In this document: one piece after another, positions 1 through 23,988 of the stretch
How positions within the stretch are numbered: position 1 is the first letter of the stretch
How the letters are laid out: the number at the start of each line of letters is the position of its first letter
Source of the DNA: an uncultured Clostridium sp.
Lineage (GTDB): Bacteria > Bacillota > Clostridia > TANB77 > CAG-508
NCBI GenBank assembly: GCA_947087745.1
Contig: CAMUDX010000022.1
Span: 1 to 29,527, forward strand
Direction: 5' to 3'
Length of the DNA stretch: 29,527 bases
Translations under genes and position numbers: made by a program
Notes under the pieces: model-generated
The model's input: the letters and a program-made list of their open reading frames with translations, nothing else
Databases searched by the model: none
Told to the model about the DNA's origin: nothing

Positions 1-81
1 AAAATAAAAAAAGATGATATATATTTAAAAAAGGAGTATAAAAATATAATAAAAAAAATAATATAAAAAGGAGAATTAAAA

Positions 82-810
82 ATGAATATAGAAAGAGAAT
101 TAAATAACGAAAAAAATTTAGAAATAAATAATGAAATTGAAAAAGAACAAAAAAGTTTTTTGGATACGACCTTTGGAAAAATAATAAATAATGCAACAGA
201 TGTTGGAATAAGATATTTGTTACCAGACATTATTGAAGATGAAGTTATAGAAATAAAAGATTCATTATTAAAAAGTGGATTTAAAGCAGCTATCAGCACA
301 GCAGTAAATAAAGCAATTGATTTTGGAAAAAGTGCAATAGGAATAATAACAGGTAATTTTGAAAATGCCACTCAAATACAAAAGGCTGTTGAAAGTGGAG
401 GAATAATAGATTCGGTATCAGATGCATTAGACACAGTTATAAATAAAGCGAAAGAAAAAGAATTATTAGATAAAAGTATAGCAAATGTTATCAAAACTGG
501 AAAGAATACAATATTAGATAATGTATCTAAAAATATTAAAGATACTTTAAATGAGCAAGTAAAAGGAGTAGAAGCTTTAGATAAATATGCAGATAGTTGG
601 AGACAATTCTATAATAATCAAAATTTTAAAGGAATGGAAAAGGAATATAAAAAAATGCAAGAAAAATTAAAAATATTAGTTCCTTTAGAAAATACTATTA
701 AACTGTCAAGGCAAATTGAAACAATACATAATTTGATAAAGAATAATGGGCAAAATTTTAATTTAAGCCAAGAAGAAATGAAATTAGTAGATAATTTTAA
801 TAATTTTTGA
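82..810 (+). CDS. hypothetical protein, 242 aa, K/E/N-rich and probably helical
   Basis: Long ORF in stop-rich AT-rich DNA. AAAGGAGAA Shine-Dalgarno lies about 8 nt before the ATG at 82. No family motif recognised. Confidence 0.6.
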   Translation: MNIERELNNEKNLEINNEIEKEQKSFLDTTFGKIINNATDVGIRYLLPDIIEDEVIEIKDSLLKSGFKAAISTAVNKAIDFGKSAIGIITGNFENATQIQKAVESGGIIDSVSDALDTVINKAKEKELLDKSIANVIKTGKNTILDNVSKNIKDTLNEQVKGVEALDKYADSWRQFYNNQNFKGMEKEYKKMQEKLKILVPLENTIKLSRQIETIHNLIKNNGQNFNLSQEEMKLVDNFNNF

Positions 811-1024: not shown

Positions 1025-3475
1025 ATGGATGAAGAAAAACAAGAGGGAATTATAATACAAAGAGATATTGATGAAGAAATGAAGACCTCATATATTGACT
1101 ATGCTATGAGTGTTATAGTACAACGTGCTTTACCAGATGTAAGAGATGGCCTAAAGCCAGTACATAGAAGAATATTATATGCTATGCACGAAGATGGAAT
1201 AACATCAGACAAGCCATATAGGAAATGTGCTAATACAGTAGGTTCTGTGTTAGGAAGATACCATCCTCATGGAGATAGTTCTGTATATGATGCAATGGTA
1301 AGAATGGCACAAGACTTTTCAATGAGATACATGTTAATTGATGGTCATGGAAATTTCGGATCAATAGATGGTGATGGGGCAGCAGCAATGAGGTATACAG
1401 AAGCAAGAATGTCAAAAATATCAGAATTTATGTTGACAGACATAGAAAAAAATACAGTAGATTTCATGCCAAACTATGATGATAGATTACAAGAACCAAC
1501 AGTATTACCAGCACAAATTCCAGCATTGCTAGTAAATGGGTCATCTGGTATAGCCGTAGGAATGGCAACAAATATACCACCACATAATTTAACAGAAGTT
1601 ATAAATGGTATAATAAAAATAATAGATGAAGATCAAGTAACAGATGAAGACTTAATGGCTGTTATAAAAGGACCAGATTTTCCTACGGAAGGAATAATTT
1701 TAGGAATTGAAGGTATAAAAGAAGCATATAAAACAGGAAGAGGAAAAATTACTGTTAGAGCAGAAGCAGAAATAGAAGAAATGCAAGGAAATAGGCAAAG
1801 AATAGTAGTTTCATCATTACCATATCAAGTTAATAAAGCAAAATTAATAGAAAATATTGCTCATTTAGCTAGGGAAAAACGCATTGAGGGAATTTCAGAA
1901 ATGCGTGATGAATCAGATAGAAATGATAGAGTAAGAATTGTAATTGAGTTAAAAAGAGATTCTAATCCACAAGTTGTATTAAATCAATTATATAAAAATA
2001 CACAAATGCAAGATACATTTGGAATAATAATGCTAGCATTAGTTAATGGAGAGCCTCAAATATTAACTCTAAGACAATGTTTAGATTGTTATATAGACCA
2101 TAGAAAAGATGTAATACTAAGAAGAACACAATTTGAATTAGATAAAGCATTAGCAAGAGCCCATATATTAGAGGGGTTAAAAATTGCATTAGACAATATA
2201 GATGAAGTAATTAATATAATACGTAATTCATATGATGATGCGAAAGAGAAATTAATGGAAAGATTTGGACTTTCTGAAATACAAGCACAAGCTATATTAG
2301 ATATGAGGCTAAAAACATTATCAGGATTACAAAGAGAGAAAATAGAAGAAGAATATAAACAGTTAATGGAATTAATAGCACATTTAAGAGAGATTCTAAA
2401 TAGTGAAAAATTAGTATTTGAAATCATAAAAGAAGAACTTATTGCAATAAGAGATAAATTTGGAGATGAAAGAAAGACAAAAATCGTTGCAGCTGAAGGA
2501 GAAATTGATGTTGAAGATTTAATAAAAGAAGAACAAACAGTAATTGCATTAACACACTTCGGATACATAAAAAGAATGCCAGTAGATACATATAGAAGTC
2601 AAAAACGCGGAGGAAAAGGAATAACAGGAATTGAAACAAGAGAAGAAGACTTTGTAAAACAAATATTTACAGCATCAACACATGATACTATATTATTCTT
2701 TACAAATAAAGGAAAACTATATAGATTAAGAGGATATGAAGTACCTGAAGCAGGAAGAACTGCAAAAGGAACGGCAATTGTAAATCTATTAAGTTTAGAT
2801 TCAGGAGAAAAAGTATCTGCTATAATACCAATACAAAACTTTGCAGAAGGTAAGTACTTATTAATGGCAACAAAAAATGGATTAATAAAGAAAACAGCAT
2901 TGGGAGAATATAATTCATCTCGTAAAACAGGATTACAAGGAATAACATTAAAAGAAGATGACGAATTAATATCTGTTAGACTTACGGATGGTGAGGATAA
3001 TGTTGTTTTAGTTACAAGAAATGGTATGTGTATAACATTTGATGAAAAAGATGTACGACCAATAGGTAGAGTGTCACAAGGTGTTATAGGAATAAGATTA
3101 GATGAAGATGATGAAGTAATTGGAATGGAATCTATAATTGCAGGAAGTAAGTCAACTCTTCTTACAATAACTGAAAACGGATTTGGAAAAAGAACAGAAT
3201 TAGATGAATATAGAGTTCAAATAAGAGGAGGAAAAGGAGTTATTACATATAAAATAACACCAAAAACAGGAAAATTAGTTGGAGCAAAAGTAGCAAGCGA
3301 AGATGAAGATGTAATGCTAATAACAGATAGCGGAACAATTATAAGATTAAATGTTAATGACATAAGTGTTTTAGGAAGATCAACACAAGGTGTAACTCTT
3401 ATGAGAACATCAGATGGTGGAAAAGTTGTAAGCATTGAAACTATTTTACCTGAAGAAGTAAAATCAGAAGAATAG
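1025..3475 (+). CDS. gyrA: DNA gyrase subunit A
   Basis: 816 aa. N-terminal hallmark [29 protein letters not shown], the active-site region [10 protein letters not shown], and a C-terminal beta-pinwheel repeat region. SD AAGAGGGA upstream. Confidence 0.97.
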
Positions 3476-3550: not shown

Positions 3551-4552
3551 TTATTTAAATCTTATATCTTCTCCAAAGAAGTAATAAATATCATAGTATC
3601 CACCAATTCTAGAACATATGCGTTCTTCATATTTTCTTAGAATATCATTCATACTTAGATTTGTAGAAATAATTGTTTTAGTACATTTTGAATTTAAATT
3701 TAATAAACGAGCATTTAAAATAGTAAATAATTCACTTAGTTTCATAGTATTAATAAATTCAGTGCCTAAATCATCAATTATTAACAAATCAACATCTAAA
3801 ATACTCTTGTAAAATAAGTCTTGCTCAGAATTATTATATTTATTAAATTTATTATCAATAAGGGTTTCTAATAAAACAGGTGCTGTTTGATAAAGAACAC
3901 TATATCCCTTATTTAATATTTCTTTAGCAATACAATTAGTCATAAATGTTTTACCTAAACCAGTATTACCAGTGAATAATAAATTTTTATAGTCAGGATT
4001 ATTAAAGTTATCTACAAATTCTATACATTTATTCTTTATATTTAAAATGTTTGTTCTAGGTGATATATTTTGTTTATATTTAGCTAGATTTACTTCATTC
4101 GAAAACTTATTTTCATTAAAAGTAGAAAAGTTTTCTTTTTCTAGATTTGACATATTAGATTTATTATATGATATATTTAATAATTTTTGCTTTAAACAGT
4201 TACACATCTGAGTTCTATTATTTTCAAGAGTTATATATCCAGTATCATGACATACATTACATTCATATAATGGTCTTAAATATGATTCAGGTATATTATT
4301 ATCTAATAAAACTTGTTTCTTTCTGTTTTTTAGTTCTTGAATTTTTAAATTTATGTTGTTTAAGTTGTTAGAAGAATTAAGCAAAATATCTTTTGCAGAT
4401 TGTATAGAATAGCTGGTTAATTCTTCTTCAATTCGTTGTAATTCTGGTAAAGATTTATATAAATTATTTTTTCGTTTTTCTAAACCTAATTCTGATTTCA
4501 TTTTTTTTCGTTCGTATTCTTGTAACAAAGAATCTAAAACTTCATTAGCCAT
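3551..4552 (-). CDS. DnaI/DnaC-type replicative helicase loader (AAA+ ATPase with N-terminal zinc ribbon)
   Basis: Walker A GNTGLGKTF, Walker B LLIIDDLG and Cys cluster CNVCHDTGY...MCNC. The likely true start is the ATG at 4552 (MANEVLDS...), preceded by TGGAGGT; this is 27 nt inside the listed ORF. It overlaps the upstream gene's stop by 8 nt. Confidence 0.8.
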   Translation of the reverse strand: MANEVLDSLLQEYERKKMKSELGLEKRKNNLYKSLPELQRIEEELTSYSIQSAKDILLNSSNNLNNINLKIQELKNRKKQVLLDNNIPESYLRPLYECNVCHDTGYITLENNRTQMCNCLKQKLLNISYNKSNMSNLEKENFSTFNENKFSNEVNLAKYKQNISPRTNILNIKNKCIEFVDNFNNPDYKNLLFTGNTGLGKTFMTNCIAKEILNKGYSVLYQTAPVLLETLIDNKFNKYNNSEQDLFYKSILDVDLLIIDDLGTEFINTMKLSELFTILNARLLNLNSKCTKTIISTNLSMNDILRKYEERICSRIGGYYDIYYFFGEDIRFK

Positions 4553-5528
4553 TAGTACCTCCATTTTGTAAATTAGCATATAAGAAACTTAAATCATCAT
4601 AATGTCTTTGTTCAAAAGAAGCTTGCGATACCTGCTGATGTAATTTTTTCTCTTCCTGTTTTTGCTTTTTGCGTTGTTCTAAGAACGACTCAATTTCTTG
4701 AGGATTTTTTAAGTTTCTATCATGCCAGTCGCTAATAACATTATTCAAGTACTCAAATGTTGGAGCAGATTTTAAAGTTGTTCTTCTTAATGCTATTTCT
4801 ATACAACTCATATCATAGTTATATTCAAATAGCCACTTTTCAATATATGCTTCTTCATATTGAGTAAGAGAAGTATGTCTTCCTAATTTTTTTGCAATAT
4901 CTTTTTTTATTTTAACAAGTTTATCTTGTTTTTGATAATATATATCTAAATCATTCCAAGTCTGGATTTTGCTATTTCCCCAAGCTTCAGCCACTGCTTG
5001 TACATAATTTTTATGTAATGCTGAACGGTTAAAACAATAGTCAAATAATGCTATCATTACTTGGTCTTCAAAATTATATTTTTTAAACCATAAATCGATA
5101 TCACTATACCAAATAGGACTCATTATACCTTGGAAATATTTATTATTTATGCATTCTATAACTTTTGCCCTTGATTTATTTTTAGAAATTTCTTCAACTC
5201 TATTTGAATCAGTTTTTAAATTAGGGGAGTATAATCTATGCAATGTTAGTTCTTGTAAATCTGTTATTATATATCCATGTTCTTTTTTTGTAATTAAATT
5301 GTTTTCTTCTAAAAATGTTGTAGCTTCATTGATTGTTTTTAATGGTAATGACAATTTTTTTGATAAATCATTTAATTTAATATCTTTTTTATACTTAGCT
5401 AAAAATACTAGATATAGATATACTTTTGAATAATCACCTGGTAATTGTGATAAAAAATCTACAAAAAAAACATCTGGCAAAGCTGTTTGAGAAAAGAGAA
5501 ATGATTTCTCAGTGTTTTCTAATTTCAT
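4545..5528 (-). CDS. DnaD/DnaB-like replication initiation and helicase-loading protein (two DnaD C-terminal-type repeats)
   Basis: 327 aa. Two repeats of the W...Y...A...W pattern (IDLWFKKYNFEDQVMIALFDYC...AVAEAW and YIEKWLFEYNYDMSCIEIAL...YLNNVISDWHDRNL). It is translationally coupled to the loader ATPase, as in the B. subtilis dnaB-dnaI pair. SD TAGGGGGAA upstream. Confidence 0.75.
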   Translation of the reverse strand: MKLENTEKSFLFSQTALPDVFFVDFLSQLPGDYSKVYLYLVFLAKYKKDIKLNDLSKKLSLPLKTINEATTFLEENNLITKKEHGYIITDLQELTLHRLYSPNLKTDSNRVEEISKNKSRAKVIECINNKYFQGIMSPIWYSDIDLWFKKYNFEDQVMIALFDYCFNRSALHKNYVQAVAEAWGNSKIQTWNDLDIYYQKQDKLVKIKKDIAKKLGRHTSLTQYEEAYIEKWLFEYNYDMSCIEIALRRTTLKSAPTFEYLNNVISDWHDRNLKNPQEIESFLEQRKKQKQEEKKLHQQVSQASFEQRHYDDLSFLYANLQNGGTNG

Positions 5529-5587: not shown

Positions 5588-5887
5588 TTATAAAATTTTT
5601 CTAGGGACTTTCTTAAACACATATATTTTAGGTCTTGTAATATATCTAAACATATATTTTATTATATGTAATATGTTTTCTCCATTAAATCCAACTATAC
5701 TAAATATGAGAAGTGGAAAACATAACAGTATAAATAAAAATATTTTTATATTCAAATTTATTGATAATAAAGTTAAAATCAATAAAACAATAGAGTACCA
5801 TATAATATTTAAGATTGCAGTAGAATAATCGATAGTTCCTAGTAATTTAGTTTTAAAATTATAGTTTTGTGGAAATATAAATTTCAA
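5588..5887 (-). CDS. PrgI/TcpE-family (VirB3-like) small membrane protein
   Basis: 99 aa. N-terminal FP..Y.FKTKLLG segment, two adjacent TM helices and a basic tail GENILHIIKYMFRYITRPKIYVFKK, as in Gram-positive T4SS PrgI-family proteins. TTG start 7 nt after AGGAGGTGAT, which lies within the end of the upstream gene. Confidence 0.55.
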   Translation of the reverse strand: MKFIFPQNYNFKTKLLGTIDYSTAILNIIWYSIVLLILTLLSINLNIKIFLFILLCFPLLIFSIVGFNGENILHIIKYMFRYITRPKIYVFKKVPRKIL

Positions 5888-5891
5888 TATA

Positions 5892-6758
5892 TCACCTCCT
5901 AATTCCCACAGATTGTGAAATAGTTGTGGATATTCCTCCTATAAATTCACGAACAAAGGAGTTAGCTTTTATTAATGCATAAATTGCACCTATATATAGG
6001 AATTTTACCAATAGATTACCTGATGAGTAATCCATTGAAAATATTATTAATAAAACTAATGATACTATTATTTGTATAAAAAGTAATGAAAATAGATTTT
6101 TAATCCAGGACTTGAAAAACCAAGATGTAGAAGACAGTGATAATGATAATATTGCAAAGGGTGTAATTAATATAAAAATTTTTATCATAATAAATCTAAA
6201 AGAGTAAGAAAATATTAGGGATAGTAGAGATATAGAAAGAGTGGACTTTATTATTCCATCTAATGAGAATATATTTAATGTGCTAGAATCGATAGAAATA
6301 GTAGAGTTTATTTCATTTATTAAAGTAGAAAAACAAATTTGGGTATTAAATAAAGCTTCTCCTAAACTTCTTATTGATAATGTTATAGTAGAAAATAAGG
6401 ATAAGAATTGTTCAATTATAAAATATGAAAAGTTCATACATGTTCCACATATAACTAATTTAAATATAAATTGATAAGGTGACTCTAGCTGTAAGAAAGT
6501 AAGGTGTGCCATTAAATATTTTATAGAGTAATATAGTAAGAATCCTAATAAAAGTGAGTTGGAAATTAATAGTATTCCATCAGATACAGAAGGTCCAAAT
6601 ATTTTTTCAAAGTATTTATCTGTTAAAATATCTTCACTTATAAAAGTTATATCATCTAAAATATCATATAGGTTATTATCTATTGATGCAAATAGATTTT
6701 GAAGTATAGTGTTTATTGTATTTATAATGGTATCAGTTATATTAATTGAATCTTCCAA
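5892..6758 (-). CDS. VirB6/TrbL-like polytopic membrane protein
   Basis: 288 aa. Soluble acidic N-terminus followed by about 6 hydrophobic helices. Assigned from its position between the pilin-like and PrgI-like genes. TTG start just after GGAGGG. Confidence 0.5.
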   Translation of the reverse strand: MEDSINITDTIINTINTILQNLFASIDNNLYDILDDITFISEDILTDKYFEKIFGPSVSDGILLISNSLLLGFLLYYSIKYLMAHLTFLQLESPYQFIFKLVICGTCMNFSYFIIEQFLSLFSTITLSIRSLGEALFNTQICFSTLINEINSTISIDSSTLNIFSLDGIIKSTLSISLLSLIFSYSFRFIMIKIFILITPFAILSLSLSSTSWFFKSWIKNLFSLLFIQIIVSLVLLIIFSMDYSSGNLLVKFLYIGAIYALIKANSFVREFIGGISTTISQSVGIRR

Positions 6759-6766
6759 AAGCCCTC

Positions 6767-7096
6767 CTATGATATTAATGATTTTATTGTTGATAGAATT
6801 AAATCAGTAGCTAAAATAAAACCATAAGAAAATAAGGATCCTCTTATAATCTTTTTTCCTGTTTTAATTTTTTCTTCATCTCCAAAACTAAATTTTTTAA
6901 TAAATATACCTGAGCCGACAGCTACTGCTGCCGCAGGAGTAGCTAAATTTATAAGCCAACTAGAAATGTTTTCAAAGGCATTATTTATTTTTAATACTAA
7001 TTTGGGTGTAGCTGCTTGAACAGAAGAGCTTAGAAAAAATATAAGCAAAATAGAAATTATTACCATTTGTATAAAAAAATATTTCTTATTTTTCAT
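6767..7096 (-). CDS. VirB2/TrbC-like prepilin-type protein
   Basis: 109 aa. Signal peptide ending SSSVQA/AT, then a mature ~80-aa part with two hydrophobic helices separated by a charged loop (KKFSFGDEEKIKTGKK). ATG overlaps the upstream gene's end by 11 nt; SD AAAGGAGAA. Confidence 0.45.
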   Translation of the reverse strand: MKNKKYFFIQMVIISILLIFFLSSSVQAATPKLVLKINNAFENISSWLINLATPAAAVAVGSGIFIKKFSFGDEEKIKTGKKIIRGSLFSYGFILATDLILSTIKSLIS

Positions 7097-8801
7097 TATT
7101 TTCTCCTTTCGTTTTTATAAAGTATGGAAACATTTTTATTGTACAGGGCTTTAATATTTTTGTTCCATTTGATAAAAATGCAAGGCAATGAAATGTTTCT
7201 AAATTTTGAGAAAAATAGTTAGTATCATATATAAAATCATTTTGTGTATATGTGTTATAACTTTCTGATACATTAGAGTCTTGAGAATTGAATGTATTTG
7301 TTATATAACTAAATTTTGTGGTTTTTGCACTTTCAGAAATACTTTGTGAAATCTTTTCTTTTTCTTCTTTCCCTAGTTGTTTTTGTGCTTCTTCGATAGT
7401 AAAAATGTCATCTGTTCTAAACCAAATTTTGTTTATTAGATTTTGAATGATTACTTTTGTAGAGGTATCATCATGTAATGTATTTTTTAGAGATGAATAG
7501 CTTTGAGTACTTACAATGTTGATACATTTTGCTTCCCTACTTAAAGAAAAAAATTGACTATCTGATTTTGTAGCATATTCTGCATATTCATCACATATAA
7601 AAGCTGTTTTCTTTCGTATATTTTTTGATAAACTTGAAAGAATTTCTGTTTGAAAATCTAGTTTTAGATATGCAGCTATTATTTTAGACAAATTTTTATA
7701 TTCTGATATATTCATATTTAATATTACAATTTTGCCATTTTTAATAGTATCTTCGAAACCTGTAAATGTTAGGTCCTCTTCTTGCGGGCAGAAGGCTTTG
7801 GAGATATCATAATCTGAAATAAATACATTTGTTATTCTACTAATTTCTGATTTTAGAATAGATAAAGTTCTTTGGTCTAATGAGAATAATTCTCTTTGAA
7901 AGAATTCTAAAGATGAATTCAAATTATATACATCTTGAACAGAAAATTTGGACTGAATAAATAAGTTCCTTAATTTTTCTATTTGCTCTTTATAGTAGTT
8001 TGGTAATGTTACTAATTTGTGAATTTCAGTAAAATTTACATATCCATTATTATATAATCTACATAGTTTTATACATTCTGTTAATATTTGTTCTGCTTTA
8101 TCTAACCAATAGGATTCTTGATTATTTTCTGAAAATAATTCTAATATAGTTCTAAGCCTATTTGCTAAGACTTGAGGCCTTAAATGAGGTTTGTGTAAAG
8201 GGTTATAACATACATTAGAATGTAATTCTATTATTATTAAATCATCTGTTAAATTAAAGTTTTTTGCATATTTTTTAACTTGTTCATAGTAATTTCCTTT
8301 TACATCTAGTATAAGCATTCCTATTTTGTCATTTGGATTATTAGAGTTATATTCTAATAATTGTTCTGTAAATGGGTACATGGCAGAACTTGTTTTACCT
8401 GAGCCTATTGTTCCTGTGATTAAAAAATTTTGATATAAACCTGATTCAGGGATATAAATTTTTGATTTAGATTTAATTTCGTCTCCAATTAATAAATTTA
8501 ATTTAGTTTGAGGGGTATTATTAATGATTTTTTTATAAGAATTTTTGTTGAATTTTTTAAATATACTATTATAAATAAAATTTGATATTATTGTGTTAGA
8601 AAATATAAAAGTAATTATAAAAGTTTTTTTAATTATATTCCATAATGTTGGATTTGTATCACATATATTAAATGGATGGATACCATAGGTTATAATAATT
8701 TGTTTTGCTTTAAAAATAGGTAAAAATGTAATAATCCCTAATAAAAAACATATTATTAGAAATACTAATATAAAAGTGAGTCTTTTTAGATGACTTTTTA
8801 T
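7086..8801 (-). CDS. type IV coupling protein (VirD4/TraG/TraD family ATPase), extended N-terminus, probable ATA start
   Basis: The listed ORF (7086-8381) starts at an internal Met. The same frame stays open up to 8846 and encodes two TM helices (LTFILVFLIICFLLGIITFLPIF and FIITFIFSNTIISNFIY) plus Walker A LITGTIGSGKTSSAM. Downstream are Walker B AFICDEYAEY and the REAKCINIVSTQSYSSL motif. There is no ATG/GTG/TTG in frame between 8382 and 8846. AAGGAGG sits 8 nt before the ATA at 8801-8799. Confidence 0.75.
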   Translation of the reverse strand: MKSHLKRLTFILVFLIICFLLGIITFLPIFKAKQIIITYGIHPFNICDTNPTLWNIIKKTFIITFIFSNTIISNFIYNSIFKKFNKNSYKKIINNTPQTKLNLLIGDEIKSKSKIYIPESGLYQNFLITGTIGSGKTSSAMYPFTEQLLEYNSNNPNDKIGMLILDVKGNYYEQVKKYAKNFNLTDDLIIIELHSNVCYNPLHKPHLRPQVLANRLRTILELFSENNQESYWLDKAEQILTECIKLCRLYNNGYVNFTEIHKLVTLPNYYKEQIEKLRNLFIQSKFSVQDVYNLNSSLEFFQRELFSLDQRTLSILKSEISRITNVFISDYDISKAFCPQEEDLTFTGFEDTIKNGKIVILNMNISEYKNLSKIIAAYLKLDFQTEILSSLSKNIRKKTAFICDEYAEYATKSDSQFFSLSREAKCINIVSTQSYSSLKNTLHDDTSTKVIIQNLINKIWFRTDDIFTIEEAQKQLGKEEKEKISQSISESAKTTKFSYITNTFNSQDSNVSESYNTYTQNDFIYDTNYFSQNLETFHCLAFLSNGTKILKPCTIKMFPYFIKTKGENNEK

Positions 8802-8947
8802 TGAGTAAACCTCCTTATCTTTAATTTTAATTTTGAACCTTGTTGGTTATGGAAAATTTTTATTTCAAAAAATGTATAAATTGAATATAAAGTTATTAGA
8901 ATATTAATAAAATAGACTATAAAAAATATATCGACTAATTTAAAAAT
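8798..8947 (-). CDS. small single-pass membrane protein (49 codons), probable ATT start
   Basis: Not in the ORF track. AAGGTGGTGA (one mismatch to AAGGAGGTGA) lies 7 nt before the ATT at 8947-8945. Translation: (M)FKLVDIFFIVYFINILITLYSIYTFFEIKIFHNQQGSKLKLKIRRFTQ. Its TAA overlaps the ATA of the coupling-protein gene, forming ATAA. Confidence 0.35.
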   Translation of the reverse strand: MFKLVDIFFIVYFINILITLYSIYTFFEIKIFHNQQGSKLKLKIRRFTQ

Positions 8948-8970
8948 GTTTTCACCACCTTGCTTTTTGG

Positions 8971-8999
8971 ATAATATAACAATTTTTTTTATTTGTCTA
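8971..8999 (-). promoter_or_regulatory. candidate sigma-A promoter for the T4SS-like operon
   Basis: The bottom strand reads TAGACA (8999-8994), a 17-bp spacer, then TATTAT (8976-8971), about 10-20 nt upstream of the SD at 8951-8960. Confidence 0.45.
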
Positions 9000-9038
9000 T
9001 ACTTTTTATAAAAAATATGATAAAATATGTTAAAACTC

Positions 9039-9055
9039 TACGACACAATTCGACA
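9039..9055 (-). promoter_or_regulatory. tandem Spo0A-box-like operator
   Basis: The bottom strand reads TGTCGAA-TTG-TGTCGTA: one exact 0A box (TGNCGAA consensus) plus a 6/7 box at a 10-bp period. It lies between the divergent T4SS-like operon and the DUF1858 gene, immediately upstream of the TATAAT at 9058-9063. Confidence 0.45.
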
Positions 9056-9093
9056 ATTATAATATTTTATAAGATTTGAAAGGGGATGAAAGT

Positions 9094-9279
9094 ATGAAAT
9101 TTAACAAAGATACACAAATCGGAGAATTATTAGAAGTTGCTCCAGAAAAGGCAGAAATATTATTAGAAGCTGGAATGCATTGCCTAGGATGTCCTGCCTC
9201 ACAAATGGAAACATTAGAGGAAGCATGTGAAGTACATGAAATAGATGTAAACGAGTTATTAAAAAAGCTAAATGCGTAA
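9094..9279 (+). CDS. DUF1858 / hybrid-cluster-protein-associated redox disulfide domain protein
   Basis: 61 aa with the GMHCLGCP motif. The ATG at 9094 follows AAAGGGGA by 7 nt, so the listed TTG at 9076 is unlikely to be the start. Confidence 0.7.
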   Translation: MKFNKDTQIGELLEVAPEKAEILLEAGMHCLGCPASQMETLEEACEVHEIDVNELLKKLNA

Positions 9280-15072: not shown

Positions 15073-16297
15073 TTTCTTCTCCTAATATTTTTTTAGTTAG
15101 AGTTAATGCATTTTTTAAATTATTATAAGCATTTGGACCAATAGAAGTATTCTCGCCTGATTCAAAATTAACAATAGACATTTCTGTTACCAATAATTTA
15201 TATCGTTGAATGCTAGTCGAAAATGATTTATACATATAAACTGGAATATATGATGTATTATCGATAGACATTTTACCAGTTCTTCCATTTTTAGTAAATG
15301 TTAAATTTAAAATTGCAGATGTTTTTGTATTTTCTTTAGTTTGACCTGATATAAAGTTACCTAAAGAATAAACAATAAATCCATCCTTTGTAGAGCCATC
15401 AGGTAGTGTAACTGTTCTTTTTTCCATAGGTTGCAATACATGAGGATGTCCTCCTAAAACAACATCTACACCGTTCTCAAAAAGAAAATCAGCTAATTCT
15501 TCTTGTGCTGAATTTTGTTTTGTAACATATTAAACACCCCAATGCATAAAAACACATATTAAATCAGGTTGTTTTTCTTGAGCAAGATTAATTTGCCTTT
15601 TTATTAAGTCTTTATCAATTAAATTTATACAATACTCTTTACCAGATGGAATTCTAATTCCGTTTGTTCCGTAAGTAAAACTTAAAAATGCTATCTTAAC
15701 TCCTTTTACATTTTGAATTAAAATTTGATTTTGGTCTTCTGCTGATGCATATGTCCCAGTATGTGCTATACCTGCATCATCTAAAAAGTTTAAAGTGCTT
15801 ACTAAACCTTTATATCCTTTATCAAGACTATGATTATTTGCAGTTGATAACACATCTATTCCTAATTTTTTTAAATCATATCCTAATGCTTCGGGTGTAT
15901 TGAAAGTTGGGTAGTTACTGTAGCCAACTTCTTTACCAGCAAAAGTAGTTTCTAAATTTCCTACAGTTATGTCGGCTGTTTGTAAGTAATATTCTACATC
16001 AGAAAATACATATGAGAAATCATATTCTTTTGTAGTAGAATTATATGCATCTTTGTACTGGGTATCATGACACATAATATCTCCAACTACACTCATAGTA
16101 ATTGTTGTATCTTTAGGAGGATCTTCTTTAGGTTTTTCTGTATTATCAGAAGAAGTGGGTATTGTATTAGAATTTGTTGGGACATCAGTCCTAGAATGAT
16201 AAATGATAAGATAAATTCCCACTATCAATAATAAGAAAAATGAAAATGTTATAAAAACCTTTTTCTTATTTAACTTTTTTCCTTTTATTTTATCCAT
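15065..16297 (-). pseudogene. CapA/PGA_cap-family metallophosphoesterase-like membrane-anchored protein, interrupted by one in-frame TAA
   Basis: The listed ORFs 15530-16342 and 15065-15436 are in the same frame. Read-through gives ...FMHWGV-stop-YVTKQNSAQEELADFLFENGVDVVLGGHPHVLQP... The motifs MSVVGDIMCHD, ANNHSLDKG, HWG.(E)Y and GGHPHV are contiguous family motifs. The stop lies at 15532-15530. The likely start is the ATG at 16297, after AGGGTGA. Confidence 0.75.
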
Positions 16298-20772: not shown

Positions 20773-21792
20773 GTGATAAAATTAAAAAATGTTACTAAGA
20801 AATATGGAAACGTTTTGGCATTAGATAATGTAAGTTTTGAAATAAACGAAGGAGAAGTCGTAGGATTATTAGGACCAAATGGGGCAGGAAAAAGTACAAC
20901 AATGAATATAATAACAGGTTTTATAGAACAAACGGCAGGAGAAGTAATAATAGACGGATATAATACAATAAAAAAACCACAAAAAGCAAAAAAGCAGATA
21001 GGATATATGCCAGAAGGGGTACCATTATATGGTGATTTAACAGTTAAAGAATTCGTTACGTATATGGCAGAATTAAGAGGAGTAAAAAGAAAAGAGAAAA
21101 AGGAGAAAGTACAAAATGCACTACAAGATGCAGGATTAGAAAATGTACAAAACAAATTAACAAGAAACTTGTCAAGAGGATATAAACAAAGAGTAAGCTT
21201 AGCAGGGACACTAGTTTCTGAGCCAAAAGTAATAATATTAGATGAGCCGACGGTTGGTTTAGACCCTAAACAAGTAACAGAAATAAGAGAACTAATAAAA
21301 AGGTTAGGAAAAAAACATACAGTTATATTAAGTTCACACATATTATCAGAGGTTAGTCAAATATGTAATAAGGTAATAATAATAAATAAGGGAAAGATAG
21401 TAGCAATAGATACACCAGAAAATTTAGAGAACAGAGTATCAAGTAAAAATGTAATTTATGTAACAGTTGAGGACACAGAAAATAAGATTAACATGATGAA
21501 TAACAAAATAAGTGAAATAAAGGAAATTAAGTTAATAAAAGAAAATGAAGATAAGACTAAGCAATATGCTATAGAAGCGGAGGGAAATACAGATTTAAGA
21601 AAGCAAATATTTGAAAATTTTGCAAAGGAAAACATAACAATATTTGAAATGAAAAAAGCTGATACATCATTAGAAGACGCATTTATGCAACTAATAGATA
21701 AAAATACATCCACAGAAAGTATAAATAATGTGGAAAACAATTCAGAAAATAAATTAGAAAGTGAAAAAGATAATGAAGGAGGAGAAAAATAG
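20773..21792 (+). CDS. ABC-2 type exporter ATP-binding protein (GldA-like)
   Basis: Walker A GPNGAGKST, signature LSRGYKQR, Walker B IILDEPT and H-loop SSH. GTG start 8 nt after AAGGAGG. Acidic C-terminal extension. Confidence 0.9.
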   Translation: MIKLKNVTKKYGNVLALDNVSFEINEGEVVGLLGPNGAGKSTTMNIITGFIEQTAGEVIIDGYNTIKKPQKAKKQIGYMPEGVPLYGDLTVKEFVTYMAELRGVKRKEKKEKVQNALQDAGLENVQNKLTRNLSRGYKQRVSLAGTLVSEPKVIILDEPTVGLDPKQVTEIRELIKRLGKKHTVILSSHILSEVSQICNKVIIINKGKIVAIDTPENLENRVSSKNVIYVTVEDTENKINMMNNKISEIKEIKLIKENEDKTKQYAIEAEGNTDLRKQIFENFAKENITIFEMKKADTSLEDAFMQLIDKNTSTESINNVENNSENKLESEKDNEGGEK

Positions 21793-22476
21793 ATGACAGC
21801 TATATTAAAAAAAGAATTAAAAAGCTATTTTTTATCCCCAATAGGATATGTAGTAATGGCAATATTTTTATTATGTTTTAGTGTGTTTTTTTACTTAACA
21901 ACATTTACTTCAGCTAGTGTAGATTTAGGGGGAGTTTACTATTATACAGCATTATATGGATTAATAATAATAGCCCCAATATTAACAATGCGAATGTTTG
22001 CAGAAGAGAGAAAAACAGGTACAGAACAATTATTATTAACATCACCAGTAGGAATATTTAAAATAGTTATTGGGAAATTTCTAGCAGCCTTAGTAGTAAT
22101 ATTATTAACATTGATTATATCATTAATGTTTTTTGCAATTACAAGTTATTTTGGAAAACCAAATATAATGTCTGTATTATCAGCAATGATTGGATTTGTA
22201 TTTATAAGTATGTCAGCAATATCAATAGGAATGTTTGCATCAAGTTTAACAGAAAACCAAATAATTGCTGGAGTATTAACAGTAGGTTTTTTAGTAATTT
22301 CTCTATTTGCAGGGTCAATTAGCCCAGTCCTTTCAGGATTAACTCTAATTGAATATTATTTGCAATTTGCACAAGGAGTAATATCACTTGAAAATACAAT
22401 ATCATTGTTGTTATTTACATTTGTGTTTATAAGTTTAACAATGATAGTAATGCAAAGAAGAAAATTAGTAAAGTAA
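21793..22476 (+). CDS. ABC-2 family permease (GldF-like)
   Basis: 227 aa, 6 predicted TM helices, with the FAEERKTGTEQLLLTSP motif typical of ABC-2 permeases. Abuts the ATPase gene. Confidence 0.85.
   Translation: MTAILKKELKSYFLSPIGYVVMAIFLLCFSVFFYLTTFTSASVDLGGVYYYTALYGLIIIAPILTMRMFAEERKTGTEQLLLTSPVGIFKIVIGKFLAALVVILLTLIISLMFFAITSYFGKPNIMSVLSAMIGFVFISMSAISIGMFASSLTENQIIAGVLTVGFLVISLFAGSISPVLSGLTLIEYYLQFAQGVISLENTISLLLFTFVFISLTMIVMQRRKLVK
22320..22335. repeat. copy 2 of the exact 16-nt repeat TAGCCCAGTCCTTTCA
   Basis: Lies inside the permease coding sequence (codons for ISPVLSG). The sense mRNA here is perfectly complementary to the translation-initiation region of the GDT1-family mRNA. Confidence 0.9.
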
Positions 22477-22479
22477 GGA

Positions 22480-23988
22480 GTGAGAAGATTGAAGAATAAT
22501 AAAGAAAATTTGCCAATAGAGAAACAAGAAGAAAAAGAAGGAATAATTCGCAAATTTATAAATATTCTAAATACTAGATGGCTACAAAGTGGATTGACCA
22601 CAATAATGTTGATTTTAATTATATTTGCTATATATTTAGGAGTAAATATAATATTAGATAAAGTAATTCTACCTGATATAGATTTAACAGAAAATAAAAT
22701 ATATTCGTTGTCTGAAGAGACAAATACTAAATTGAAGAATATTAATAAAGAAGTAAAAATAACATTAATTAATTATGGCGATTATGAAAGTTTTATAAAA
22801 ATAGTAGAAAAATATACAACCGTAAACAAATTAATAACTTTAGAAAGAATTGATGATTTGGCATCCAGAACAGATATAATGCAAAAGTATTCATTGGGAA
22901 CTACAGATAAGTTAATATTAATATCATCTGAGAATAAAGAGAAAACTATAGCAGAATATGATTTATATACATATGATTATTCAACATATGAAGAAATTGA
23001 CTTAACAGAAGAAACAATTACAAATGCAATTATAGATATAACAACTGAAAATAGACCAATTATTTACTTTATGAATAATCATATAATGTATAGCGAAGCA
23101 TATTATACAACAATACTAAATGCACTAAAAAATGAGGCTAATGAAGTAAAAACATTGGATTTACTAACACAAGGAGAAGTACCAAGTGATTGTGATACAT
23201 TAATTATTACAACTCTTAAAGAAGATATTACTGAAGGTGAAAGAGATAAAATAATTGAGTATATTAATAGAGGTGGAGATTTATTACTACTATGTGGCTC
23301 TAATTTACTAGATGTTCCATTAACTAATTTTGATTTAGTGCTAAGTCAATTTGGAATGCGAATTGGAAATGGAGTAATATTTGAAGGAAGTTCTTCTAAT
23401 ATGTTATCAGGTTATCCAGATTTTATAGTTGAAGAAGTACAAAGTAACAGCATAACTAAACAAATTAATATGTCAATAAATGCATGTTTTGCAGATGCTG
23501 CACCAATTATTGTTTATGAAGAAAAGTTAGATGAATTAGGCGTAGAGTACGAAACTTTAATAACTACTACAAATAAAGCATTTATAAGAACTGACCTATC
23601 ACAACAATCAGCAGTTAGAACATCACAAGATAGTGAAGCAGGAGAGCAAATTGTAGGAGTTCTTGCAACTAAAAAGATTAATGATAATGCTTCTTCTAAG
23701 TTAGTTCTATATTCAAATGAGTTATTTGCAACAAGCACAGCTGTTCAATTAATGGGATATAGATATGAAATTGTTGATTTATATAATAATAAAGATATTG
23801 TATTAAATTCGATAGCATATTTAAATGAGAGAGAAGATATTATAACAATCAGAAAAAATTATGATAGTGTTTCTTATACAGTTACAGAACTTCAAAACAA
23901 TGTAATTATGGCTATTATATTTATAACACCAGTCATTGTCCTTGCTATTGGTATAGTCGTTTGGCAAGTTAGAAGAAGAAAAAAATAA
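22480..23988 (+). CDS. GldG-like ABC transporter auxiliary component
   Basis: 502 aa. N-terminal TM anchor, large extracytoplasmic domain and a C-terminal TM followed by RRRKK. Third gene of the GldA/F/G-type trio. The start could instead be the TTG at 22489, 8 nt after AAGGAG. Confidence 0.7.
   Translation: MRRLKNNKENLPIEKQEEKEGIIRKFINILNTRWLQSGLTTIMLILIIFAIYLGVNIILDKVILPDIDLTENKIYSLSEETNTKLKNINKEVKITLINYGDYESFIKIVEKYTTVNKLITLERIDDLASRTDIMQKYSLGTTDKLILISSENKEKTIAEYDLYTYDYSTYEEIDLTEETITNAIIDITTENRPIIYFMNNHIMYSEAYYTTILNALKNEANEVKTLDLLTQGEVPSDCDTLIITTLKEDITEGERDKIIEYINRGGDLLLLCGSNLLDVPLTNFDLVLSQFGMRIGNGVIFEGSSSNMLSGYPDFIVEEVQSNSITKQINMSINACFADAAPIIVYEEKLDELGVEYETLITTTNKAFIRTDLSQQSAVRTSQDSEAGEQIVGVLATKKINDNASSKLVLYSNELFATSTAVQLMGYRYEIVDLYNNKDIVLNSIAYLNEREDIITIRKNYDSVSYTVTELQNNVIMAIIFITPVIVLAIGIVVWQVRRRKK

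Follow-up and report, generated by a model that had tools for sequence, protein, structure and literature searches.

A probable two-unit, pilin-bearing type IV secretion system around gyrA in the origin region of uncultured gut Clostridia

The type IV secretion systems (T4SS) of the Patescibacteria, or candidate phyla radiation (CPR), are chromosomal, lie near dnaA, dnaN, rnpA and rpmH, and usually occur without a relaxase; their widespread parts are VirB4, TrsD, PrgI/VirB3, VirB6 and VirB2-like pilins found with PF18895 (PMC12102498). In Ca. Southlakia the T4SS is essential for epibiotic growth (PMC10633639), and a 2025 review presents the Patescibacteria as the sole monoderm exception with VirB2 pilins (PMC12857230). 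Judged by component set and origin-proximal position, these systems are the closest described analogue of a five-gene operon, P1-P5, that we analyzed in an uncultured Clostridium sp. on a stretch of 29,527 nucleotides (contig CAMUDX010000022.1, assembly GCA_947087745.1), hereafter the window. We consider it probable, at roughly four chances in five, that P1-P5 is one of two transcription units of a single, chromosomally fixed T4SS without a relaxase nearby. Unit 1 would consist of P1, a VirD4-type ATPase (P2), a VirB2-like pilin (P3), a VirB6-like protein (P4) and a PrgI/VirB3-like protein (P5), reading into dnaD-dnaI, and unit 2 of a TrsD-like N-terminal piece of VirB4, VirB4 itself (CD1110 family), a ParA/MinD-like ATPase and a protein designated w242. 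Each unit would supply what the other lacks, because the VirB4 unit has no membrane proteins of its own by hydropathy and the P1-P5 operon has no VirB4. Full-text searches of the literature found no description of such a T4SS in Clostridia or other Bacillota.

The resemblance to the Patescibacteria T4SS (e.g. Ca. Southlakia epibionticum SEML1_0006-0019) extends to a chromosomal, dnaA-proximal position with no relaxase nearby, to the apparent set of VirB4, TrsD-like, PrgI/VirB3, VirB6 and VirB2-like pilin components, and to a monoderm host with a small genome in which the system is lineage-wide rather than patchy. The Clostridial host, however, belongs to the Bacillota (dnaD and dnaI are present), and its locus carries one pilin gene in place of the Patescibacteria pilin array. 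In addition, the Clostridial coupling ATPase is encoded at the head of the pilin operon, whereas its CPR counterpart usually lies at a distance and was not essential, and the arrangement as two convergent units around gyrA-dnaI-dnaD, the ParA-like ATPase and the non-AUG starts likewise set the Clostridial system apart.

The five genes of the operon are co-directional and tightly packed on the minus strand (5588-8947), with the P1 stop codon overlapping the P2 start (ATAA), and all of the open reading frames (ORFs) lie where an earlier note on this stretch had placed them. Hydropathy agrees with the membrane topologies that the note assigned, and both the P3 signal peptide ending in VQA/A and the quoted P2 motifs are present (GTIGSGKTS at residues 130-138, FICDEY at 401-406 and IVSTQSYSSL at 429-438). 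The T4SS identity that it proposed for these genes is borne out for P2 by profile and fold matches, and for P3, P4 and P5 through the profile matches of their relatives. P2 scores above the curated cut-offs of both coupling-protein Pfam families, TrwB_AAD_bind (1.3e-12; 47.7 bits against 20.5) and TraG-D_C (5.8e-7; 29.9 bits against 22), as do all 12 of the P2 relatives tested. The AlphaFold2 model of P2 (predicted local distance difference test score 73.5, predicted template modelling score 0.65) contains helices at residues 2-31 and 51-92 and, within the nucleotide-binding domain, a helical block at 209-337. Foldseek placed H. pylori Cagbeta first among its matches (8dol, E 6e-9), followed by DotL and TrwB; HerA and VirB4 folds and the DndH/DptH defence ATPases were also returned. 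With a modelled membrane anchor, a P-loop domain bearing an all-alpha insertion and profile scores above threshold, P2 has the predicted make-up of a VirD4-type coupling protein. Thousands of close relatives occur in metagenome-assembled genomes (MAGs) of uncultured Clostridia. A mechanically produced ORF list and the public record P0004 give P2 as 431 aa, beginning after Walker A, and public gene calls shorten it to 431-500 aa; the 431-aa calls arise because P2 has no ATG, GTG or TTG start. The family alignment shows conservation of both Walker A and the N-terminal helices, and the 571-aa P2 is therefore the real gene.

The proteins encoded after P2 are small or polytopic, and their assignments depend largely on relatives. 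P3 has the layout expected of a VirB2/TrbC-like precursor, namely signal peptide, helix, charged loop and helix, and its mature two-helix part is nearly invariant among relatives while the signal peptide varies. The window protein falls below the Pfam cut-offs of both T4SS_pilin (7e-5; 23.2 against a gathering threshold of 26.6) and TrbC (2.4e-4; 21.7 against 27.9); T4SS_pilin is matched at E<=0.01 by 42 of 43 P3 relatives, the best at 1.7e-6. P4 contains at least five hydrophobic segments and the window protein has no profile match of its own; of 38 close relatives, 20 match Pfam TrbL (best 2.3e-4), and of 31 distant relatives at 22-48% identity, drawn from an exhaustive search of 1.84 billion representatives, 11 match TrbL/VirB6 (best E 6.1e-7). 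PF04610 is also precomputed on the P4 relatives P0209 and P0233. P5 has hydrophobic segments at residues 25-43 and 49-67, is conserved in at least 73 loci and faintly matches the N-terminal part of a model for a VirB3-VirB4 fusion. Taken by itself, the predicted P5 assignment is weak; four neighbouring proteins that appear to point independently to four parts of one machine nevertheless constitute strong combined evidence.

The missing ATPase was sought by tblastn with pCF10 PrgJ and pCW3 TcpF. These queries found no VirB4 in the window and matched an ORF of ~605-625 aa near the edge of many related loci. This ORF matches Pfam P-loop_TraG (6e-20), AAA_10, DUF87 and CagE_TrbE_VirB, and the NCBIfam CD1110-family VirB4 model at 1.5e-89 over model positions 187-730 only. 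The 185-aa ORF that immediately precedes it accounts for positions 1-158 of the CD1110-family model (2e-9) and also matches TrsD (2.7e-4). Given this complementary coverage by two ORFs, VirB4 is therefore split into a TrsD-like piece and an ATPase, the arrangement of pGO1-type systems. All 12 loci in which at least 2.5 kb precedes w242 contain VirB4; counting every locus, it occurs in 21, which span the whole identity range. In most relatives examined, the forward strand reads jag-yidC-rnpA-rpmH, dnaA-dnaN-recF-gyrB, TrsD-like, VirB4, ParA/MinD-like, w242 and gyrA, while dnaI, dnaD, P5, P4, P3, P2 and P1 lie on the opposite strand and converge on the VirB4 unit. The order dnaA-dnaN-recF-gyrB-[T4SS unit]-gyrA was observed in the Pfam-labelled contexts of L087-L090. 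gyrA lies downstream of the P1-P5 operon on the opposite strand in 59 of the 62 loci where both could be placed; in L013 the VirB4 unit is directly upstream of P1 and co-directional with it. VirB4 lies 5-7 kb from P5 in relatives, and both units are ~10-20 kb from dnaA. A VirB4-family ATPase, the component by which CONJScan/TXSScan define a T4SS, is thus found in the locus of relatives and not within the window itself, and further proteins of mating-pair formation stand nearby (matches to T4SS_pilin, TrbL, PrgI and TrsD) that are individually weak and all point in the same direction.

The left edge of the window retains the end of the VirB4 unit. Frame 1 of bases 1-66 reads KIKKDDIYLKKEYKNIIKKII, compared with KMKKDNLYLKRIYKNAIKKII at the C-terminus of the ParA-like protein of L005, and the ParA-like proteins of L005 and L087 match Pfam CbiA, AAA_31 and ParA as well as NCBIfam MinD. 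Since the window begins in the ParA-like tail, VirB4 should therefore start ~1 kb to its left, and three near relatives with gyrA DNA 90-93% identical carry VirB4-ParA-w242-gyrA. w242, always the last gene of that unit, stands beside the VirB4 genes and gyrA in 42 loci, with a ratio of nonsynonymous to synonymous divergence (dN/dS) of 0.15. Searches of Pfam, NCBIfam and PADLOC gave no match for it, and it may serve as an accessory factor or be itself a substrate. The earlier note had called the operon an orphan lacking VirB4, which is true of the window only: the appearance arises because the window ends before VirB4, and a split VirB4 lies beyond dnaD-dnaI-gyrA in every one of the 12 loci with sufficient flank. 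Of the three readings that the note had offered, a VirB4 encoded elsewhere is now favoured, a decaying integrative and conjugative element (ICE) is rejected, and a minimal device that dispenses with VirB4 becomes unnecessary. As a separate observation, an AT-rich spacer of ~750 bp without an ORF separates gyrB from the TrsD-like gene in L089 (8640-9390) and has no Rfam match.

Table 1. Positions of the genes and the leader discussed here, numbered from the first base of the window.
Feature	Position	Strand	Description
ParA/MinD-like ATPase, 3' end	1-66	+	last 21 codons and stop; receiver-like N-terminus; directly follows VirB4-like gene in relatives
w242	82-810	+	242-aa soluble helical protein, no hydrophobic segment; last gene of VirB4 unit
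gyrA	1025-3475	+	Pfam DNA_topoisoIV (2.4e-169) and DNA_gyraseA_C; between the two T4SS units; context, not a component
dnaI-like loader gene	3551-4579	-	Pfam IstB_IS21/Bac_DnaA on orthologues; context
dnaD/dnaB-like loader gene	4545-5528	-	Pfam DnaB_2 on orthologues; directly downstream of operon, co-directional; context
P5	5588-5887	-	99 aa; 4 nt after P4; putative PrgI/VirB3-like two-helix membrane hairpin, basic tail
P4	5892-6758	-	288 aa; 8 nt after P3; polytopic, putative TrbL/VirB6-like
P3	6767-7096	-	109 aa; 11-nt overlap with P2; putative VirB2/TrbC-like pilin precursor
P2	7086-8801	-	571 aa; ATA start 8 nt after GGAGG; predicted VirD4-type coupling ATPase, N-terminal membrane anchor
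P1	8798-8947	-	49 aa; ATT start 7 nt after AAGGTGGTGA; single-helix membrane peptide with basic tail
Conserved non-coding leader	8948-9075	-	common to P1 and the divergent DUF1858 gene

The operon is a resident of the chromosome. A one-genome-per-species collection yielded at least 541 matching stretches; the best 80 loci are 63-86% identical and derive from MAGs of human, rabbit, goat and mouse guts. tblastn of the window proteins recovered the order DUF1858 (divergent), P1-P2-P3-P4-P5-dnaD-dnaI in essentially every locus that was long enough, giving the same synteny in 80 species-level genomes with at least hundreds more matching stretches in uncultured gut Clostridia. dnaD-dnaI adjoins the operon in nearly all loci, and no terminator-like site was found between P5 and dnaD. 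Relative to the nearest relative, dN/dS is 0.20 for P1, 0.11 for P2, 0.10 for P3, 0.06 for P4 and 0.17 for P5, compared with 0.08 for dnaI and 0.02 for gyrA; by these ratios the operon is under purifying selection, and its conservation goes far beyond chance. Apparent internal stops in relatives are nearly all natural stop codons overrun by the alignment, and true disruptions are rare (L027 has a premature stop in P2, L018 a frameshifted P4 and L004 an IS240 after P2). The claim of the earlier note that this is a maintained, resident module rather than junk is thereby upheld by a gene order shared among ~80 species-level genomes and by dN/dS values of 0.06-0.20, and its remark that composition resembles the flanks agrees with an operon GC content equal to theirs. 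The five-gene set is also conserved beside the loader genes in relatives, a comparison that the note had proposed, and those with sufficient flank additionally carry the VirB4 unit, in most cases across gyrA. Two insertions were observed among the relatives: in L004 an IS240 transposase follows P2 and replaces P3-P5 (11845-13275), and in L087 an rve transposase lies between dnaD and P5 (18821-19804).

The hallmarks of a conjugative element are absent: no relaxase (MOB) accompanies the T4SS nearby, there is no integrase or attachment repeat, and the distribution is fixed rather than patchy. Among Pfam-labelled genes within ~10 kb on each side in L001 and L087-L090 no relaxase was found, and tblastn with PcfG and TcpM, a search of low sensitivity, detected none in 1.2 Mb of loci. 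Searches for an integrase and for significant flanking repeats were likewise negative, and the direct repeats around the operon are chance matches in AT-rich DNA. Within the window, the absence of a relaxase, hydrolase, VirB8-like gene, integrase and meaningful flanking repeats is as the earlier note had described it. Both the operon and the VirB4 unit are interleaved with gyrA, dnaD and dnaI.

Comparison with other described systems places the Clostridial VirB4 in familiar company, since by sequence it is of the ordinary mating-pair formation (MPF)-FATA type. The MPF-FATA systems (pGO1/pSK41 Trs, pIP501 Tra, pCF10 Prg/Pcf and C. difficile CD1110/CD1115) share with the Clostridial locus a CD1110-family VirB4 (E 1.5e-89), a TrsD-like piece that is separate in pGO1 too, PrgI-like and VirB6-like proteins and a coupling ATPase. 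Unlike them, the Clostridial locus has no relaxase, cell-wall hydrolase, VirB8-like protein or adhesin, does not lie on a mobile element and has a putative VirB2-like pilin, and P2 is not of the CD1115/PcfC type. The archaeal Ced/Ted systems (PMC9905601) likewise combine a domesticated, chromosomal VirB2-like pilin with VirB6-like and VirB4-like proteins and no relaxase; they differ in being archaeal, in having no coupling protein and in that import by them was shown experimentally. The closest VirB4 relative in a plasmid collection (37% identity) belongs to a cluster on pMM35_02 of Vescimonas fastidiosa, a cultured member of the Oscillospiraceae (NZ_AP023417, L094). This cluster includes a 106-aa 'fimbrial protein' (L094 7571-7891) with a signal peptide and two helices like P3 (hhalign E 0.0035), and pilin-like genes may therefore be commoner in Clostridia than reviews say. 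The Vescimonas cluster differs in having PrgI fused to VirB4, a CD1115-type coupling protein, a C39 peptidase and sortase pili, and it resides on a secondary replicon, whereas the Clostridial locus is near the origin.

Several observations weigh against the interpretation of P1-P5 as half of a two-unit T4SS. The VirB4 of this exact genome is placed, strongly, by synteny, because the contig ends ~100 bases beyond the window. Neither a VirB1-like hydrolase nor a VirB8-like protein was seen within ~10 kb on each side, although only low-sensitivity tblastn was applied; the absence of a relaxase holds for the same ~10 kb, and a relaxase or further parts may be encoded elsewhere. P2 is an atypical coupling protein: its 30 plasmid-borne relatives are at most 30% identical and lie mostly on non-mobilizable plasmids without a T4SS. 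The context of the best of these, on Agarilytica pSU3, was uninformative. The AlphaFold2 model of P4 (predicted local distance difference test score 50) was unusable and no fold search was made with it, and among 41 P5 relatives PrgI is matched weakly by 11 (best E 0.013) and VirB3 by one. Profile searches of all PDB sequences with P3, P4, P5 and the distant P4 relatives gave no relevant match, and a P2 profile matched only the Walker A region of DptH. Alignment by hhalign of the family alignments with single sequences of pCF10 PrgI, PrgH and PcfC and pCW3 TcpE gave nothing significant, beyond aligning Walker A of P2 with that of PcfC, single-sequence targets being too thin for such a comparison. 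Finally, the direction of transport and the cargo are proposed by analogy with known T4SS.

P2 alone might power a channel of pilin, VirB6 and VirB3 proteins, with the nearby VirB4 unit belonging to a separate system. In favour of this, the two units are transcribed separately, from opposite strands, and housekeeping genes intervene; P5 does not adjoin VirB4 in relatives, unlike in classical loci, and P2 belongs to an unusual coupling-protein subfamily. This explanation seems to us quite improbable, because the VirB4 unit without membrane components and unit 1 without VirB4 are complementary, and because both units were found together wherever the locus could be tested, over the full range of identity, and are adjacent and co-directional in L013; moreover, coupling-protein genes are often encoded away from virB4 (PMC12102498). 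A decaying or truncated ICE that landed beside the tRNA cluster could account for the nearby tRNA genes, for the lack of a relaxase or hydrolase, as decay might leave, and for the occasional disruptions (IS240 in L004, the P2 stop in L027 and the P4 frameshift in L018). It is rejected as highly improbable, because 80 species-level genomes at 63-86% identity share both the genes and their position, dN/dS is low and comparable to that of dnaI, no integrase, relaxase or flanking repeat was found, composition resembles the flanks and the upstream regulatory DNA is conserved. For the same reason the earlier note's notion of a truncated ICE remnant with elevated dN/dS does not hold, and the relatives examined carry no full ICE at this position. 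Nor do we give much credence to a role outside secretion, in which a HerA/FtsK-type ATPase would work with unrelated membrane proteins, for instance in a defence or DNA-processing module: although Foldseek also returns DndH/DptH and HerA defence ATPases for P2, and P2 further matches DptH in the PDB and PADLOC mad8, four independent neighbours indicate VirB2, VirB6, VirB3 and VirB4/TrsD, and the best fold match of P2 is a coupling protein, so that the chance of such a role is very small. The mad8 match was rejected as a defence signal, because mad8 also matches VirB4 and the ParA-like protein and is a generic P-loop match.

The main alternative concerns direction rather than composition, in that the same two-unit machine could serve import, taking up DNA or nutrients by analogy with archaeal Ced/Ted and H. 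pylori ComB or as proposed for Patescibacteria. A chromosomal location with no relaxase nearby, a VirB2-like pilin and core status in the lineage are shared with Ced/Ted and the Patescibacteria T4SS (PMC9905601, PMC12102498, PMC12857230) and would suit such a role. The small, AT-rich genomes (one contig is 1.9 Mb) would also be consistent with it. To our knowledge, however, the uptake-only systems (ComB, Ced/Ted) have no coupling protein, whereas in the Clostridial operon P2 comes first among the large genes and shows the tightest linkage and the strongest conservation; we therefore lean towards export, and regard import as unlikely.

In the two-unit T4SS that we favour, VirB6-like P4, VirB3-like P5 and the split VirB4 would form the membrane translocon, by analogy with known systems. 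The P3 pilin would be exported by Sec, cleaved after VQA and kept in the membrane, and VirB4 may then polymerise it on the VirB6 platform into a pilus or a wall-spanning stalk. Membrane-anchored P2 would recruit a cytoplasmic substrate, and the ParA-like ATPase could position the machine or its cargo. Our confidence is evenly divided on the proposal that the system exports protein or nucleoprotein into adjoining cells on contact, as part of the housekeeping of the lineage and not as mobile-element transfer. The analysis nonetheless suggests a conserved two-unit, pilin-bearing T4SS without a nearby relaxase in the origin region of a large uncultured gut Clostridia lineage. The function of a domesticated T4SS of this kind could then be studied in a second, independent lineage, and the Clostridial system would be a candidate relative from which to approach the origin of its Patescibacteria counterpart. 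More speculatively, the pilus-forming T4SS could be a core, origin-linked organelle tied to the Patescibacteria T4SS as a sister or donor lineage and to an obligate cell-to-cell lifestyle. We consider this extension rather unlikely; if true, such a lifestyle (epibiosis, or exchange of chromosomal DNA or protein) could explain resistance to cultivation.

The initiation signals of both units are unusual. P1 is conserved at 43-88% identity in 83 loci, with no family match, and its aligned residue 1 is ATT, ATA or ATC in 73 of 73 loci. At P2, aligned residue 1 is ATT or ATA in 22 of 24 loci, and there is no canonical start before residue 12 in 57 of 81. The window start codons are at 8945-8947 for P1 and 8799-8801 for P2. 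The corresponding residue is mostly TTG in P4, mostly ATG in P5 and ATG in 72 of 72 loci for dnaD, and the TrsD-like gene has an ATA start after GGAGG in L087-L090. A one-nucleotide frameshift in the window P1 relative to a GTG start was considered and rejected, because a non-AUG start is the simpler reading given ATT or ATA at the aligned codon in all 73 loci. The weak AUU, AUA and UUG starts may keep expression low or tie it to initiation-factor levels. In practice, the conserved AUU/AUA starts cause gene callers to truncate or miss P1, P2 and the TrsD-like gene, and the split layout causes window- or operon-based scans to report the system as 'VirB4-less'.

The leader upstream of P1 contains a Shine-Dalgarno sequence, AAGGTGGTGA, at 8961-8952, a promoter-like TAGACA-17-TATTAT at 8999-8971 and an upstream element, TTTTATCAT, at ~9026-9017. 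With 58 sites found and 52.5 expected from shuffles, a sigma-70 promoter scan was uninformative in such AT-rich DNA, and cross-species conservation was therefore used. Conservation across 73 species is at least 90% for AAAAAGTATAGACAAA, for TATTAT after a gap of ~17 nt and for a TTTTATCAY element, whereas synonymous sites are heavily diverged even in the nearest pair (dS up to ~1.1, near saturation). No Rfam match was found in the P1 leader, which is probably a promoter plus operator; we infer from its conservation that the locus may combine a conserved promoter/operator with deliberately weak translation initiation.

Divergent to P1 in nearly all loci is a small DUF1858 (redox disulfide) gene, at 9076-9279 in the window. 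Elsewhere on the minus strand, a PGA_cap (CapA-like) gene is interrupted by an in-frame TAA at 15530-15532 (MHWGV*YVTKQ), leaving ORFs of 270 and 123 aa; its L001 orthologue is 442 aa, and the window TAA is either a nonsense mutation or an assembly error. An ABC transporter set, comprising an ATPase, an ABC-2 permease and an ABC_transp_aux protein with a GIFT-like domain, lies at 20773-23988 and recurs near the T4SS region in some relatives (L013 717-3890).

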